From: a virus
Taxonomy: Duplodnaviria > Caudoviricetes
Length of the DNA stretch: 54,180 nucleotides
IMG/VR virus record: IMGVR_UViG_3300047563_000085
Coordinates: 1 to 54,180 of that record
Reading direction: 5' to 3' (one strand)
The translations under genes and the position numbers were made by a program. The notes under the pieces are model-generated. The model was not told the DNA's origin. It was given only the letters and a program-made list of their open reading frames with translations, and ran no database searches. Below, piece by piece: positions 4,444 to 49,820 of the stretch (the stretch's first letter is position 1; the number at the start of each line of letters is the position of its first letter).

Positions 4444-4477
4444 AAAAAGCCACTGAGAATATTCTCAGTGGCTTTTT
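4444..4477. terminator. Bidirectional intrinsic terminator (perfect palindrome)
   Basis: AAAAAGCCACTGAGAAT|ATTCTCAGTGGCTTTTT between convergent genes. Confidence 0.85.
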
Positions 4478-10958: not shown

Positions 10959-10992
10959 AAAAAGCCATACTCGATATCGAGTATGGCTTTTT
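10959..10992. terminator. Intrinsic terminator (perfect palindrome)
   Basis: AAAAAGCCATACTCGAT|ATCGAGTATGGCTTTTT directly after the stop codon. Confidence 0.85.
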
Positions 10993-11816: not shown

Positions 11817-11820
11817 AAGG

Positions 11821-11852
11821 AAAAGCCACTGAAAATATTTTCAGTGGCTTTT
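11821..11852. terminator. Bidirectional terminator (perfect palindrome)
   Basis: AAAAGCCACTGAAAAT|ATTTTCAGTGGCTTTT between convergent genes. Confidence 0.8.
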
Positions 11853-12098
11853 CGCATATTCTATCATTTCTTTCATAGTGCCATAAGCCACCCAATCGTC
11901 CACGCCAGGGTCGAAAACAGAATACAGATTGTCCGGCTCGCCACATATTGTATATCGATTTATCATGACATACCAATCAGTATGGTCTTTGAAAATATAA
12001 GCATTGCCTTTCAACTTTTCAACAAAGGCAATAACGAAATCTTCTGCGCCATAATAATCTATCAACTGATGTATTTCATTTTCCGATTTTATTATCAT
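11841..12098 (-). CDS. Hypothetical protein (MI-start array member)
   Basis: Start taken at MIIKSE by analogy with neighbours. Confidence 0.65.
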   Translation of the reverse strand: MIIKSENEIHQLIDYYGAEDFVIAFVEKLKGNAYIFKDHTDWYVMINRYTICGEPDNLYSVFDPGVDDWVAYGTMKEMIEYAKSH

Positions 12099-18988: not shown

Positions 18989-19024
18989 AAAAAGCCAATA
19001 ACGAATATTCGTTATTGGCTTTTT
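18989..19024. terminator. Intrinsic terminator (perfect palindrome)
   Basis: AAAAAGCCAATAACGAAT|ATTCGTTATTGGCTTTTT. Confidence 0.85.
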
Positions 19025-31985: not shown

Positions 31986-32086
31986 ATTAGCAGAACTTAG
32001 ACGATTATAGCGTATATTACAAAAGTTGGTATAACAATACCAACTTTTTAAGTAATAACACATAATACCTCTTTTTTACTGAAATT

Positions 32087-32127
32087 AAAAAAGCTCCTAA
32101 GAACTTTAAGTTCTTAGGAGCTTTTTT
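32087..32127. terminator. Terminator after the capsid gene (20-bp arms, 1-nt centre)
   Basis: AAAAAAGCTCCTAAGAACTT-T-AAGTTCTTAGGAGCTTTTTT; a second hairpin lies near 32021-32048. Confidence 0.85.
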
Positions 32128-32210
32128 ATTGTCTGGTAAATAGTTCATCGTCATCGAAATTACCACATTTAATTGACGAAAAATCTAACCCTAACCTAAC
32201 AGTGATATTT

Positions 32211-35390: not shown

Positions 35391-35424
35391 AAAAAGCCCT
35401 TAAACATATGTTTAAGGGCTTTTT
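35391..35424. terminator. Bidirectional terminator (perfect palindrome)
   Basis: AAAAAGCCCTTAAACAT|ATGTTTAAGGGCTTTTT. Confidence 0.85.
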
Positions 35425-38887: not shown

Positions 38888-40058
38888 CGGGTTGGAGCGG
38901 AAAGCCACTGGGTTTAGCCCGTGGTCTGAGCGACTATTCTACTCATATAATATATATACATAAATATATCTATGACTAATCCTATTACTAAAACCCTACA
39001 GCTACGTATCAAAGATAAGCATGATTCTTATCTATCTGCTATGGCGAAAGAAATAAACATAGTCTGGAATTTCATTAACTCCACCTCCACTAAAGCATGG
39101 AAAGATAACCATGACTGGATATCAGCTTATGATTTACAAAAATTAACTGCTGGCTATTCCTCACTAGATGACGTTAAAATAGGTGCTGCCTCAGTCCAAC
39201 AAGTATGCAAAGAACACGAAATAAGACGTAATCAATTCAAGAAATATAAACTCAGGTATAGGTCATCTAATCCCAAATCAGCTAAGAAATCCCTTGGTTG
39301 GATACCATTCAAAACAGGTGGTATCTCATACAAATCAGGTCAAATTAAGTTCTTAGGAAAATATTATAGCCTATGGGATAGCTATGGCTTATCTAGCTAT
39401 ACTTTAAGGTCTGGTTCTTTCACTCAAGATTCAAGAGGTAGGTGGTATATCAATATCACAGTAGAAGTAATACCTACTAAATCAACGGGTACTTCTGTAG
39501 TAGGTATTGATTTAGGTCTAAAAACTACTGCTACTTGTTCCGATGGTAATAAATTAGAAGGTAGGGTATATAGGAAATACGAACCTAAATTAGCTAAAGC
39601 ACAACGAGCTAATAAAAAGAAAGAAGTAAAAAATATACATGCCAAAATAAAGAATACTAGAAAAGATATGTATCATAAATTCACTACCGAGTTAGTGAAA
39701 AATAATGCTGCTATCTATGTAGGCAATGTATCTACTAAGGCGATGATCAAGTTGAGTGCTAAATCAACTTATGATGCGGCTTGGTATCTATTCAAATCGA
39801 TGTTGTTATATAAAAGCCATTGGGCTGGCATCGATTATGAAGTAATAAATGAACAATATACAACCCAAACTTGTTCTAGCTGTGGAGTAATTCCACATAG
39901 CAGTCCGAAAGGTAGAACTGGTTTGAGAATAAGGCGATGGGAATGCTGTGACTGTGGTGTTATGCACGACAGAGATGTAAATTCAGCATTAAACATAGCC
40001 GCGCTCGGACATGGGCGTCTCGTAGGAGGAATCCCCTTAACTAAGGGGTAGATGTCAA
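38888..40058 (+). mobile_element. tnpB-only IS605-group element with IS608-type ends
   Basis: TTAC target at 38884-38887; left end AAAG plus hairpin CCACTGGGTTTAGCCCGTGG; right end GAAT plus hairpin CCCCTTAACTAAGGGG ending GATGTCAA. Confidence 0.85.
38972..40051 (+). CDS. tnpB: TnpB endonuclease (RuvC-II variant)
   Basis: KTLQLRIKDKH, GSFTQDSRGRWYIN, GIDLGLK, INEQYTTQTCSSCG, HDRDVNSA. Confidence 0.93.
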   Translation: MTNPITKTLQLRIKDKHDSYLSAMAKEINIVWNFINSTSTKAWKDNHDWISAYDLQKLTAGYSSLDDVKIGAASVQQVCKEHEIRRNQFKKYKLRYRSSNPKSAKKSLGWIPFKTGGISYKSGQIKFLGKYYSLWDSYGLSSYTLRSGSFTQDSRGRWYINITVEVIPTKSTGTSVVGIDLGLKTTATCSDGNKLEGRVYRKYEPKLAKAQRANKKKEVKNIHAKIKNTRKDMYHKFTTELVKNNAAIYVGNVSTKAMIKLSAKSTYDAAWYLFKSMLLYKSHWAGIDYEVINEQYTTQTCSSCGVIPHSSPKGRTGLRIRRWECCDCGVMHDRDVNSALNIAALGHGRLVGGIPLTKG

Positions 40059-40131: not shown

Positions 40132-40162
40132 AAAAAGCCAATGATATTATCATTGGCTTTTT
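40132..40162. terminator. Intrinsic terminator (1-nt centre)
   Basis: AAAAAGCCAATGATA-T-TATCATTGGCTTTTT. Confidence 0.8.
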
Positions 40163-41554: not shown

Positions 41555-41566
41555 AAAAGGAATAAT

Positions 41567-43003
41567 ATGAAAACAATAAAAAGTAAAACCAAAAAAGTAG
41601 TAAATGAAATCAAAATGTCAGTGCCTTCGCTTTAAGCGAAGGCACTGACCACTGGCGCCAAGGTAGGTATCGAATTCGAGCTAATATCCAGAAGTATGAT
41701 TTTTCAGGTAGAACCAGATGAATACGACGAAAGTAACTGGTCCACCGAAATCAATTATTCGGACATGAATTCGATAACCAGTATGTCTGGTGTAGAGGAA
41801 TGTTTTGACCTTACTAGGTCAGAACAATCTAGATTGGAATCTAGAATAGAAAAGTGGATAGACAGTAACAAAGACGAAAAAGTTTATGATTTTTTAAAAA
41901 CACTAGACTTCGATGTATTTTTTGAAAAAGCCAAAGAACTATCCATATACGACGACGATAATGACGATAATGAAGATATAATACATCAAGCCAAGAAAGA
42001 TTTTAGTAATGAAACCGGCGGCTATCATGAATTGGCCGAGGCGATAAAAGACGACGATAATGAGTTCTATAAACAGCTTGACGAATGGCCTCCGGGCGAA
42101 AGTGATTTTTTTGAAGAAATATGCAATAATGACGCCAGGGAATTGCACGAGGAATATCCAGATTTTGCAGTAAACGATAATTTTGTAGAACGGACATGGG
42201 AACCTCAAACCTCCGGTGAGAATGATTATAGTGAAGTATATAGAGCCTTGCGGAGATACGTTAATGGTGCCTCTGCGTGGGTGATAGAAGAGGATGGTAG
42301 TCTAGGCGAGAATGGTGTTGAAATAATATCTCCTCCTATAGATATTGCGGATATCGAATCGACTATAGAGGATATGCGAACCTTTGCCGAAGATGAAGAT
42401 TTCACGACTAATGATGATTGTGGATTGCATATCAACGTATCTGTACCAAATTTCTCCCATAGCAATTTAGATTATCTCAAGTTATGTCTATTAGTAGGAG
42501 ATCAACACGTATTGGAAAAGTTTGGTAGAGACACGAACACGTATTGCAAATCCTCTCTTGGAAAGATCCGTGATGTATTTTCGGCCGACTATATAGGACA
42601 ATTTGCAAAGTCTAAAATTATAGACCATCTACATAATACTCTAAGCACGCAATCCGCTATTAAATTTTCTGACCTACGCACCCTTGCATTTGGAATAACT
42701 GCAAAATATTCATCTATTGGGATTAAAGATAATCGGATTGAATTCCGCTCAGTAGGTGGAGACTGGCTATCGAGAGATCCGACCGATGTATTGGAAATGG
42801 TATATAGATTCACATATTGCTTATATGCGGCATGCAATCCACAAGTAGAAAAGAAAGAATATGCTAAGAAACTATATAAGTTTTTAGGACAATTCTCTTC
42901 GGATACTTCTGCGCCCATGTTATCTAGTTTGGTGATATCTGGGGAGATGAACGCAAAGGAAGCAATTGCGAAAATAAAAGCAAAATCTAGCATAACTACG
43001 TAA
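41567..43003 (+). CDS. Putative amidoligase (COOH-NH2 ligase), copy 1, with in-frame TAA at codon 23
   Basis: AAGGA RBS and ATG at 41567; GIEFEL, EEDGSL, GVEIISPP, CGLHINVS, KYSSI, IEFRS motifs; TAA at 41633-41635. Confidence 0.8.
41617..41649. repeat. Perfect 16-bp inverted repeat with 1-nt centre (T of the TAA)
   Basis: GTCAGTGCCTTCGCTT-T-AAGCGAAGGCACTGAC. Confidence 0.95.
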
Positions 43004-43018
43004 TAAAAAAGGAATAAT

Positions 43019-44434
43019 ATGAAAACAAGAAAATCAAAGTCTCACAAAACTACATTAAGTGAAATCAAAATGTCAGTGCCTTCGCTTTAAGCGAAGGCAC
43101 TGACCACTGGCGCCAAGGTAGGTATCGAGTTCGAGCTGATCTCCGGTCGTATGACATTTGTGAATGACGAACCAGACCCAGATGATGATTCTAATTATAC
43201 AGAACAACCACAATATCACCGTATGTCTTTAGAAAGTATGGATGATGTATCCACTTATTTTGAATTAACTAGAAATCAAGCAAGACAACTCCAATTCCGA
43301 TTGGACGATTGGCTAAAAACTGATAGGAGATTTGGAATTGCTGCGCTTTTAAAGTTTGATGAATATTTTGAAGTTGGGCAATACCTTGATCTATATACCG
43401 AAGATGATAGTGAAATTGCTGAAGCCGACCTCGATGAGGGAGATAAAAACAAAAACTATAATCTCGTCTTCGATCATCTCATGGAAGATAATGACGATTA
43501 TGAGCAATATGTTGGCAATTTGCCAACCGAAGACGGATTTTTTCATGTTGAATACAGATCGGACCCAGAACAATTTCACGACGAAATGGGATGCAGTGTT
43601 AAATCTGAGTATATAGAGCTAGAGCGGATGGACGATCATCAGTATAGTTCTACACCAAACTACTCTGAATTATATGGGGTATTTTATAAGTATATCGATG
43701 AGCGTGGATGGACTATCGAACCAGATGGGTCACTTGGCGTCGAAGGGGTAGAAATAATATCCCCACCTATAGATATTGCGGATATCGAATCGACTATAGT
43801 CAAAATGCGAGATTTCGCAGAACAAGAAGATTTCACGACCAATGATAATTGTGGCTTACATATCAATGTCTCTGTTCCTAATTTCTCACATGATAATCTA
43901 GACTATCTAAAACTATGTCTACTGGTTGGCGATCAACACGTATTGGAAAAGTTTGGTAGAGACACGAACAAATATTGTAGATCATCATTGGATAAAACAA
44001 AAGCCGCATTTTCTCAAAATTCAACTGATGCAAAAACAGAACTTACCACTAGAATAGCACGACATCTACAATCAACATTAGAGGCCCAAGCCACTATTAA
44101 GTTTGGGATTCTTACAAGATTGGTTGGTGGCTTAACTAACAAATATTCATCTATTGGTATTAAAGATAATCGGATTGAATTCCGCTCAGTAGGTGGAGAC
44201 TGGCTATCGAGAGATCCTAATGATGTATTAGAAATGGTATATCGTTTCACATATTGTTTATATGCTGCATGCAATCCACAAGTAGAAAAGAAAGAATATG
44301 CGAAAAAACTATATAAGTTCCTACAAGCACAAACAGAAGAGAAGACTGCGCCCATGTTATCTAGTTTAGTGATATCTGGGGAGATGAACGCAAAGGAAGC
44401 ACTTGCGAAAATAAAAGCAAAATCTGTGGCGTAA
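43019..44434 (+). CDS. Putative amidoligase, copy 2, with in-frame TAA at codon 24
   Basis: Same RBS and motif set as copy 1; TAA at 43088-43090. Confidence 0.8.
43072..43104. repeat. Second identical 33-nt inverted repeat
   Basis: GTCAGTGCCTTCGCTT-T-AAGCGAAGGCACTGAC. Confidence 0.95.
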
Positions 44435-46738: not shown

Positions 46739-47323
46739 ATGCAAAAAATAAAATACATTGCTGGTGGCGACACACTTATATTAAACAGTGATGGCGCCCC
46801 AATATCAATAATACCGAATCTTTCCACATTATCTTGGGACGATGCCATTATGAAAGTGATGTCTGGCAAGGTAGATGTTCTGGCGACATACGACCAAGTA
46901 GTTCGTTCAGAAAATACAGAAATGAATATACCTGCTGTGGTAATATCTAGAAAATGGTGTGCGAATCCAAGAACAATTAGTTTTTGTCCAAAATTTGTTT
47001 TTCTTAGAGATGAATACCAATGTCAATATTGTGGAAATATATTCCACCCAGACCTATTGACTATGGATCATTACATACCGAAATTGAACGGTGGTCCGAA
47101 AACTTTTGACAATATAGTTTCTGCATGTGCTCCTTGCAATTCTAAAAAAGGACACCAACTACAACAACCACTAAATAAACCATACACCCCGACATATTAT
47201 GACTTGGTGAACAAACGAAGAAAAAATCCAATTATAGTAAATCATGATTCTTGGAATTTTTATTTGGGATGGAATGCCTCGCTAGTTAAAATCCAGAATT
47301 GGGTTTGCCAAACCAAGTATTGA
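46739..47323 (+). CDS. HNH endonuclease (McrA-like)
   Basis: VFLRDEYQCQYCG, TMDHYIP..GG...FDNIVSACAPCNSKKG. Confidence 0.9.
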   Translation: MQKIKYIAGGDTLILNSDGAPISIIPNLSTLSWDDAIMKVMSGKVDVLATYDQVVRSENTEMNIPAVVISRKWCANPRTISFCPKFVFLRDEYQCQYCGNIFHPDLLTMDHYIPKLNGGPKTFDNIVSACAPCNSKKGHQLQQPLNKPYTPTYYDLVNKRRKNPIIVNHDSWNFYLGWNASLVKIQNWVCQTKY

Positions 47324-48441: not shown

Positions 48442-48475
48442 AAAAACAGGACAGAAATATTTCTGTCCTGTTTTT
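48442..48475. terminator. Terminator (perfect palindrome)
   Basis: AAAAACAGGACAGAAAT|ATTTCTGTCCTGTTTTT. Confidence 0.85.
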
Positions 48476-49634: not shown

Positions 49635-49783
49635 TGAAAAGCAATTACTACAATAATTTAAAACAAATTATAGAAGAAGATTCTAAGGAAACACAAGCAA
49701 TGATTGTTTCCTGTAGAAAAACAAAAGAAAAACTAATTCAGAAATATAAATTCGTAAAACCAAAACCACAACCACAACAATGA
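49634..49783 (+). CDS. Hypothetical 49-aa protein
   Basis: TGATG overlap with the gp25 stop; ends at a terminator. Confidence 0.45.
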   Translation: MKSNYYNNLKQIIEEDSKETQAMIVSCRKTKEKLIQKYKFVKPKPQPQQ

Positions 49784-49820
49784 AAAAAGCCCACTAAGAA
49801 TATTCTTAGTGGGCTTTTTT
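49783..49820. terminator. Bidirectional terminator (perfect palindrome)
   Basis: AAAAAAGCCCACTAAGAAT|ATTCTTAGTGGGCTTTTTT. Confidence 0.85.

Follow-up and report, generated by a model that had tools for sequence, protein, structure and literature searches.

A stop codon at the centre of a perfect palindrome in two tandem phage amidoligase genes: a candidate one-base switch without a recombinase

The viral record IMGVR_UViG_3300047563_000085 is a stretch of 54,180 bp with an estimated completeness of 14%, analysed here at its full length (the window). It is a fragment of a jumbo phage. Virion and tail-fibre genes are encoded in it, and a tblastn search of GenBank phages returned only matches of 23-34% identity, to the jumbo phages Atu_ph07 (Agrobacterium) and RsoM2USA (Ralstonia) and to one uncultured phage record. 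Two tandem genes match the Pfam family PF12224 (Amidoligase_2), whose members are glutamine-synthetase-like carboxylate-amine ligases; read through their stops, with X at the stop position, copy 1 scores 30.9 bits and copy 2 scores 32.9 bits, with a cut-off of 22. Each gene, when read through, contains a single internal stop and is then open in frame to its normal end. The called open reading frames (ORFs) begin only at 41696 and 43151 and do not contain the GIEFE motif, which lies upstream of them (Table 1). A sequence-only reading of this DNA had proposed that both paralogues start at an AAGGA-ATG (41567 and 43019) with a TAA in frame, and that the GxExE strand lies between this stop and the next Met and is absent from the short ORFs. 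Reading of the sequence bears out the starts, and the placement of the strand agrees with the ORF starts, with the start of the Pfam profile and with a structure model of the relative P0008 (below). Besides a 69-nt block, the longest that they share exactly, the two genes have further exact blocks of 59, 40, 35, 34, 33, 23 and 22 nt in common, and the paralogues are mosaics of exact blocks.

In each gene, the stop lies within a 33-nt palindrome, GTCAGTGCCTTCGCTT-T-AAGCGAAGGCACTGAC, which is found at these two sites and nowhere else in the window and occupies codons 17-28 of the gene. When the 33-mer is compared with its minus strand, there is one mismatch only, at the centre. The earlier proposal that the T of the TAA is the sole unpaired base of a perfect inverted repeat in both genes, and that changing it to A yields AAA (Lys) and a continuous ORF, is thus correct on both counts, with one internal stop per gene. 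The palindrome search had no match in any of 100 dinucleotide shuffles of the window. We also scanned the whole window for odd-centred palindromes in which a centre stop is removable by complementing (arms of at least 8 nt, at least 15 open codons before and at least 60 after, on the gene strand), and the only two such sites are those in the amidoligase genes. Folded as RNA, copy 1 of the palindrome forms a 15-bp stem with a 3-nt loop, and its 146-nt context has a minimum free energy of -33.9 kcal/mol (z -4.5). As a side observation, a 30-codon ORF on the minus strand of the palindrome (43065-43157) gives the same peptide, SVPSLKAKALT; this is a mirror effect and not a gene.

Table 1 Features of the amidoligase locus and related hairpins in the window
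Feature	Coordinates	Strand	Remarks
Shine-Dalgarno-like AAGGA and ATG start, copy 1	41557..41569	+	AAGGA 41557-41561; ATG 41567 in frame with TAA 41633 and with the ORF from 41696
Leader, copy 1, 22 codons (MKTIKSKTKKVVNEIKMSVPSL) to TAA	41567..41635	+	
69-nt block common to both paralogues, their longest exact block	41605..41673 and 43060-43128	+	
Intrinsic-terminator-like site, palindrome followed by ATTTTGATTT	41607..41649, likewise 43062-43104	-	Consensus scan match only
Perfect palindrome, copy 1	41617..41649		16-nt arms, 100% complementary; 1-nt centre
Centre T, copy 1	41633	+	First base of in-frame TAA (41633-41635); complement gives AAA (Lys)
In-frame coding segment after the stop, copy 1 (AKALTTGAKVGIEFELISRS)	41636..41695	+	Holds the invariant ExE strand (GIEFE at 41666-41680); no ATG, GTG or TTG
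Called ORF, copy 1	41696..43003	+	435 aa; Amidoligase_2 without first strand
AAGGA and ATG start, copy 2	43009..43021	+	AAGGA 43009-43013; ATG 43019
Leader, copy 2, 23 codons (MKTRKSKSHKTTLSEIKMSVPSL) to TAA	43019..43090	+	
Perfect palindrome, copy 2	43072..43104		Identical to copy 1
Centre T, copy 2	43088	+	First base of TAA (43088-43090)
In-frame coding segment after the stop, copy 2	43091..43150	+	GIEFE at 43121-43135
Called ORF, copy 2	43151..44434	+	427 aa; Amidoligase_2
Perfect intergenic hairpins	4444-4477, 10959-10992, 11820-11853, 18989-19024, 32086-32128, 35391-35424, 40132-40162, 48442-48475, 49783-49820		

The window was also compared with other assemblies. Twenty-four sequencing runs are listed for this phage, all of them as contigs and none of them with RNA data, and four of these (X1, X3, X4 and X6) were compared with the window. 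X1 and X3, which come from different studies, each hold one contig over 41300-41634 and another over 42935-43089 with 0 differences, and the T>A class is absent from the change lists of both. The contigs join the centre T to the copy-specific base 41604 in one case and to copy 2's own left flank in the other; because a copy-specific base to the left of the shared block is held together with the centre, the orientation of the T is anchored. The source sample may itself belong to one of the two studies. JGI, ENA and Logan sources all contain the truncated proteins as well. Breaks in the Logan contigs lie at 41634/41644 and 43089/43099, set by the edges of the 69-nt paralogue repeat and not by the centre, and are expected because the repeat is longer than the assembler word, which we take to be 31 letters. 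Two caveats raised earlier consequently fall away. A de Bruijn assembler with k<=33 was said to be blind to T versus A, but by our reasoning words of at least 18 letters that include the centre and one base beyond the arm resolve it; and the concern that the shared stretch would let one error hit both copies is answered by independent contigs that give T together with each copy's own left flank. Judged by these contigs, the centre T in both copies is not an assembly error.

The nearest relatives of the two proteins form four lineages (P0002/P0122/P0003, P0005/P0004, P0006/P0007 and P0008). Identity is 55-73% between the three diverged lineages and 85-94% within lineages, and these three keep intact ORFs of about 430 amino acids. 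Seven of the eight proteins of the palindrome clade begin at the Met downstream of the stop. P0008 has Lys at the stop position and reads SVPSLKAKALT (NEIKMSVPSLKAKALTTGAKVGIEFE, ...NEIKMSVPSLKAKALTTGAKVGIEFELISGSMTF); two targeted searches, at near lengths and among shorter proteins, found no intact N-terminus besides it. The next relative, P0009, reads NEIKMTTTALKTKALSTGAKVGIEFE, and six distinct distant homologue genes from metagenome loci are open at the stop position, with the motif E-I-x-M-S-P-x-x-L followed by K, R or A. No inverted repeat longer than 7 bp was found at the site in the distant homologues. Sixteen residues separate this Met from G[IM]EFE in seven of eight homologues (P0008 and P0009 included), with or without the palindrome, which rules out the palindrome as an inserted element. 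The unchanged spacing, together with the lack of a palindrome in the distant homologues, indicates that the palindrome arose in place, without change of length, in one sub-clade. On this comparison, the intact state (AAA, Lys) is ancestral. The suggestion to look in homologous genes for the repeat and for both alleles is therefore borne out in one part, the Lys form in P0008, and not in the other, as the distant homologues lack the repeat. Close relatives at the DNA level were found neither by megablast of phage records nor by blastn of the 70-nt block, none appeared in viral_contigs by protein, by alignment or by the 21-nt core of the palindrome, and a metagenome scan returned only homologues of 25-38% identity.

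Coding constraint persists on either side of the stop. E43 and E45 of the GIEFE motif are invariant in 30 homologues, and E21, M24 and L29 are at least 90% conserved. The PF12224 profile begins at KVGIEFE in P0008. In the structure model of this protein (predicted local distance difference test, pLDDT, 74.3), residues 26-34 form a helix and residues 39-48 a strand within a block of mean pLDDT 96. Compared with the PDB, the model has glutamine synthetases as its top folds (probability 1.0, with a template modelling score of only 0.3-0.38), and a search of the PDB by sequence gave no useful match. The called ORFs, which do not include this first strand, are very likely inactive as predicted proteins. 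Among the substitutions listed for relatives in X4 and X6, those between the stop and the Met are 5 synonymous and 1 non-synonymous, those in the catalytic part (42232-42781) are 11 and 3, and those overall are 16 and 16. The leaders of copies 1 and 2 differ by a 3-nt in-frame indel and an AGT/TCA serine codon switch, which fits coding constraint. As far as these comparisons go, the genes are not decaying, and the stretches flanking the stop keep the substitution pattern of coding DNA. An alternative genetic code was rejected, as TAA ends 29 of the 54 ORFs of at least 100 amino acids, including both amidoligase genes, and the window encodes no transfer RNA (tRNA). Frameshifting was also ruled out, since homology goes on in the same frame.

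Several further observations concern the relatives themselves. P0003 and P0122 have an N-terminal half that is copy-1-like and a C-terminal half that is copy-2-like, and are either natural recombinants that fuse the paralogues or assembly chimeras over the shared block. P0008 lacks a variable acidic insert (about 95 alignment columns), so that it has 349 amino acids as compared with 426-435, and the gap lies between similar EPDP and SDPE motifs. An X4 contig near 41601-41689 carries the conserved block with both flanks different, a short leader (MTRQINEIKMSVPSL...) and, beyond the block, no Met, and represents either a relative or a third type of paralogue. A distant homologue locus (L003; 476-2400 and 2404 onward) has two tandem amidoligase paralogues, both with intact N-termini.

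Two lines of evidence from the phage genes suggest that the centre base has changed. A maximum-likelihood tree places P0008 (Lys) as the sister of P0006/P0007 (support 99/100), nested among the stop-state proteins, and its well-supported branches force at least two state changes. In X6, which comes from a third study, the contig with the left flank of copy 2 matches the window over 81 of 81 letters; its match ends one base short of the centre and leaves 2 letters over. A more divergent contig with the left flank of copy 1 ends matching at the same point, likewise leaving 2 letters over, whereas the X1 and X3 equivalents match two letters further. As the X6 flank contigs stop matching one base before the centre, the X6 centre would be a base other than T in both copies. 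In addition, we estimate about 100 sites at which one change would create a stop, and a stop on exactly this base is an unlikely coincidence unless its cause is linked to the palindrome.

The 21-nt palindrome core is shared with a family of bacterial hairpins. A species-genome collection contains 50 exact matches (L017-L066), and the carriers are nearly all Bacteroidota, including Cytophagales, Sphingobacteriales, Emticicia, Arcicella and Runella. In the genomes counted (G001-G005 and G086-G091), there are 2-24 hairpin copies per genome when 1-2 mismatches at most are allowed. The family has the stem GCCTTCGCT / AGCGAAGGC and a variable 3-nt loop, with an outer stem that varies yet remains paired; the bacterial arms are perfect over 10-26 nt. 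Among the 50 bacterial copies, 45 lie outside ORFs of at least 80 amino acids, mostly 7-60 nt downstream of unrelated genes, whereas the phage copies are inside genes. The exact core was found in none of 80 family relatives of the carrier G002, Rfam has no entry for the hairpin family, and a literature search with the two arm sequences returned unrelated primer matches only. That coding sequence matches a bacterial intergenic stem base for base could reflect a templated patch of host DNA, selection for a stem-binding factor or use as a terminator.

This family also allows the centre base to be followed in bacteria. Eight locus pairs have homologous flanks, and five of them differ by T versus A at the centre, one of these pairs being 97% identical over 594 nt. 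The differences require at least 3 independent events in 5 groups, with a background A-T exchange of 0.5-10% per site in the same alignments, and by our estimate the excess has p of about 5e-4. Two clean compensatory double changes (G-C to A-T and G-C to T-A) were found in outer stems of orthologous hairpins, in the pairs L095/L121 and L098/L109 (G091/G090), whose flanks are 96% and 87% identical, respectively; these fit either templated correction or selection for pairing. Taken together, the bacterial sequences support a raised T/A exchange at the middle base of perfect hairpins, which would be compatible with inversion and is not proof of it. In the phage, the terminator-like hairpins between genes (Table 1) keep perfect palindromic symmetry across the loop, leaving 0 or 1 nt at the centre; most have the form AAAAAGCC...GGCTTTTT. 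Such perfection through the loop is unneeded for hairpin function in RNA, and hints at a DNA-level process that perfects palindromes.

We propose that a palindrome-templated, reversible A/T hotspot toggles the codon between Lys and stop, and that both copies are now in the off state. We hold the chances for and against this proposal to be about evenly balanced; the flip, its rate and its direction are what we infer from the palindrome sequence, the real T, the Lys form and the coding constraint on either side. In this model, translation of both genes would start at the strong upstream ATG and end after 22 or 23 codons, yielding products without the invariant first strand (GIEFE). Across the perfect palindrome, two same-sense strands could pair, mismatched only at the centre (T-T or A-A). 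If a nascent strand switched template within one arm, copied the centre and returned in the other arm, the sole outcome would be an exchange of T for A or of A for T. Such a switch may arise during replication or strand exchange and would need no dedicated enzyme. Gene conversion over the 69-nt shared block could then carry the centre between the paralogues, which would account for the two copies having the same state within each run, T in X1 and X3 and a base other than T in X6. The sequence-only reading had likewise suggested that hairpin inversion or template switching toggles the genes without an invertase. What stands of this is that neither PF00239 (Resolvase) nor PF00589 (Phage_integrase) has a match in the window, which is about 14% of the genome, and that such a mechanism is described in the retrieved part of PMC8794818; the tree, the X6 mismatch and the bacterial T/A excess favour it indirectly, while the prevalence of the stop state and the bacterial loops described next do not.

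A number of points weigh against a toggle. The stop state appears in seven of the eight clade proteins, and a free-running switch would be expected to give a more even mix; for the five clade proteins from outside the window, moreover, the stop is deduced only from their start at the downstream Met. P0008 is the sole protein among 5.8 billion clusters with an intact palindrome-coded N-terminus. The paralogues are mosaic, so recombination of a single mutation could account for both changes on the tree. A mixture of T and A within one population was not seen in the data, which are contigs and drop minority variants, and a one-base flip is by sequence indistinguishable from a plain T-to-A transversion. 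In the bacterial family, the search pattern for the core allowed only A or T at the centre. Moreover, among 11 orthologous asymmetric 3-nt loops from two pairs of related genomes, none was inverted where about 3 would be expected at the rate of the W-centred hairpins, and one of the 11 carried two point substitutions. That the stop state dominates is also in keeping with a contingency locus mostly sampled in its off phase, and two alternatives in which the stop is stable account for it better than a free-running switch does.

In one of these, a fixed stop is tolerated, the palindrome is retained as an antisense terminator or a host-factor site, and a low level of enzyme is made by near-cognate readthrough of UAA or by reinitiation at an in-frame CTG (41645). 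The stop state deduced for most of the clade, in genes whose ORFs are nonetheless intact and constrained, agrees with this, as does the lack of inversion in the bacterial loops, and the identity of the 21-nt core with a Bacteroidota intergenic hairpin family points to a role at the nucleic-acid level. Both copies also resemble terminators on the minus strand by consensus score, where 15 pairs, 9 of them G-C, are followed by ATTTTGATTT; yet this T-rich tail is forced, because it is the complement of the conserved NEIKM codons. Readthrough fares less well, as TAA is the commonest true stop in the window, no tRNA is encoded there and no ATG, GTG or TTG lies between the stop and the Met. The stop is followed here by G, an efficient context for termination, and a stop at a hairpin apex has no downstream structure of the kind that promotes readthrough. 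A fixed stop would also leave both the Lys in P0008 and the X6 mismatch unexplained, and we regard it as unlikely.

The other stable alternative is plain inactivation, in which the shared block acquired an ordinary AAA-to-TAA nonsense mutation that gene conversion passed to the other paralogue and that then spread; decay would be under way, and the position at the palindrome centre would be due to chance. The identical 69-nt block in mosaic paralogues, the resemblance of P0003 and P0122 to copy 1/copy 2 recombinants, and the dominance of the stop state are all as this would predict. It is difficult to reconcile with three diverged lineages that keep intact ORFs of about 430 amino acids, with the prevalence of synonymous changes both in the catalytic part and between the stop and the Met, and with a leader that keeps its frame and its ribosome-binding site. 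By our estimate, a chance stop would fall on the unpaired base about 1 time in 100, and the tree calls for two or more changes of state. We consider plain inactivation improbable. A third alternative is that the T is an artefact of assembly or of library chemistry at the palindrome, the true base being A. The T and A versions are reverse complements, the stretch is common to the two copies and contigs break at the shared block, all of which would favour such an error. Against it, separately built contigs from two studies carry the T joined to copy-specific flanks with 0 differences, the breaks fall at the edges of the 69-nt repeat while words of at least 18 letters should resolve the centre, and the truncated proteins recur in three sources; an artefact is accordingly very improbable indeed.

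The proposed toggle has counterparts in known systems, none of which it matches fully. Inversion of hairpin loops underlies the 'minute inversions' of plastids, and template-switch mutation at quasi-palindromes is reportedly a subject of Ripley's work on phage T4. Template switching at quasi-palindromes perfects stems and inverts hairpin loops, as set out in the retrieved portions of PMC7202029, PMC8794818 and PMC8604942. As here, arms template a change in the spacer and stay perfect, no recombinase is involved and coding sequence is affected too; in those portions, however, the process is described as a source of mutation and not as a stop toggle, and the spacer of the present palindrome is 1 base, so that its inversion equals a transversion. 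In invertons and intragenic invertons, a segment flanked by inverted repeats recodes a gene or adds a premature stop (PMC10028968, retrieved in part). They share with our case the inverted repeat and an inversion that alters the reading and is reversible in principle, but they are enzyme-mediated, with segments of tens to hundreds of bp, whereas the unit here is 1 nt, beyond any site-specific recombinase. Simple-sequence-repeat contingency loci provide a hypermutable in-frame site that switches a gene and is often sampled off (review PMC11868660). These loci work by slipped-strand change of repeat number, while the amidoligase genes have no repeat tract at the site and the frame never shifts.

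Two further systems resemble the locus in form. In the bypass of phage T4 gene 60, a hairpin 3' of the take-off codon accompanies the skipping of a coding gap, and the take-off and landing codons match. The resemblance is that a phage gene carries a stop codon within a hairpin and its product would extend past that stop. Programmed bypass or readthrough nevertheless does not fit the amidoligase genes: their relatives align without a gap that could be skipped and have Lys in place of the stop, TAA is a normal stop and no tRNA is present in the window. Repetitive extragenic palindromes and terminator hairpins are a further comparison, as are the Rickettsia palindromic elements, which occur inside genes. 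The bacterial core family is like these in being multi-copy and patchily distributed, with copies mostly 7-60 nt after gene ends. The phage copies differ from palindromic repeat elements in that they lie inside coding sequence, add no length and have no element-moving transposase linked to them. In the retrieved text of a 2025 review of phase variation, a term search found none of the words palindrome, hairpin and template, and no description of a one-base, recombinase-free stop-codon toggle was found in the literature searched. The mutational process, the larger enzyme-driven inverted-repeat switches and the repeat contingency loci are thus known; a one-base stop toggle would be a further form of these kinds.

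Two neighbouring genes are recorded for completeness. A TnpB-like gene (PF01385 OrfB_IS605 and PF07282 Cas12f1-like TNB; phrog_506 'transposase') lies at 38972-40048 (+), 1.5 kb upstream of the amidoligase genes; considered as a link to the host, it was not found in 5 hairpin-bearing bacterial genomes. An HNH endonuclease gene at 46739-47320 (+) adjoins a tail-fibre-like gene.

A broader version of the palindrome-templated toggle can be envisaged, which we put forward as speculative and probably too far-reaching. In such a recombinase-free 'one-base inverton', a host-type hairpin, taken by the phage into the 5' coding region of its amidoligase paralogues with the unpaired base as the first base of a Lys codon, would be a selected reversible switch; gene conversion would keep the paralogues in step, populations would hedge on the enzyme, and across Bacteroidota the hairpin family would generate rapid, templated changes of single bases.

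Even if the stop proves to be an ordinary nonsense mutation, the locus carries a warning, as the catalytic strand of both genes lies outside the annotated ORFs. Known phase variation proceeds by repeat slippage, recombinase-driven inversion or methylation, and a toggle at a palindrome centre, if true, would be a fourth route. It would have no enzyme of its own, and such sites would be missed by inverton finders and repeat scans alike. The match with the Bacteroidota hairpins offers a lead to the host of this phage and a second system in which the flip rate could be measured. If the toggle is real, annotations of truncated genes, or of genes with a late Met start, may reflect reversible off states, and these could be scanned for as stops at the centres of palindromes.

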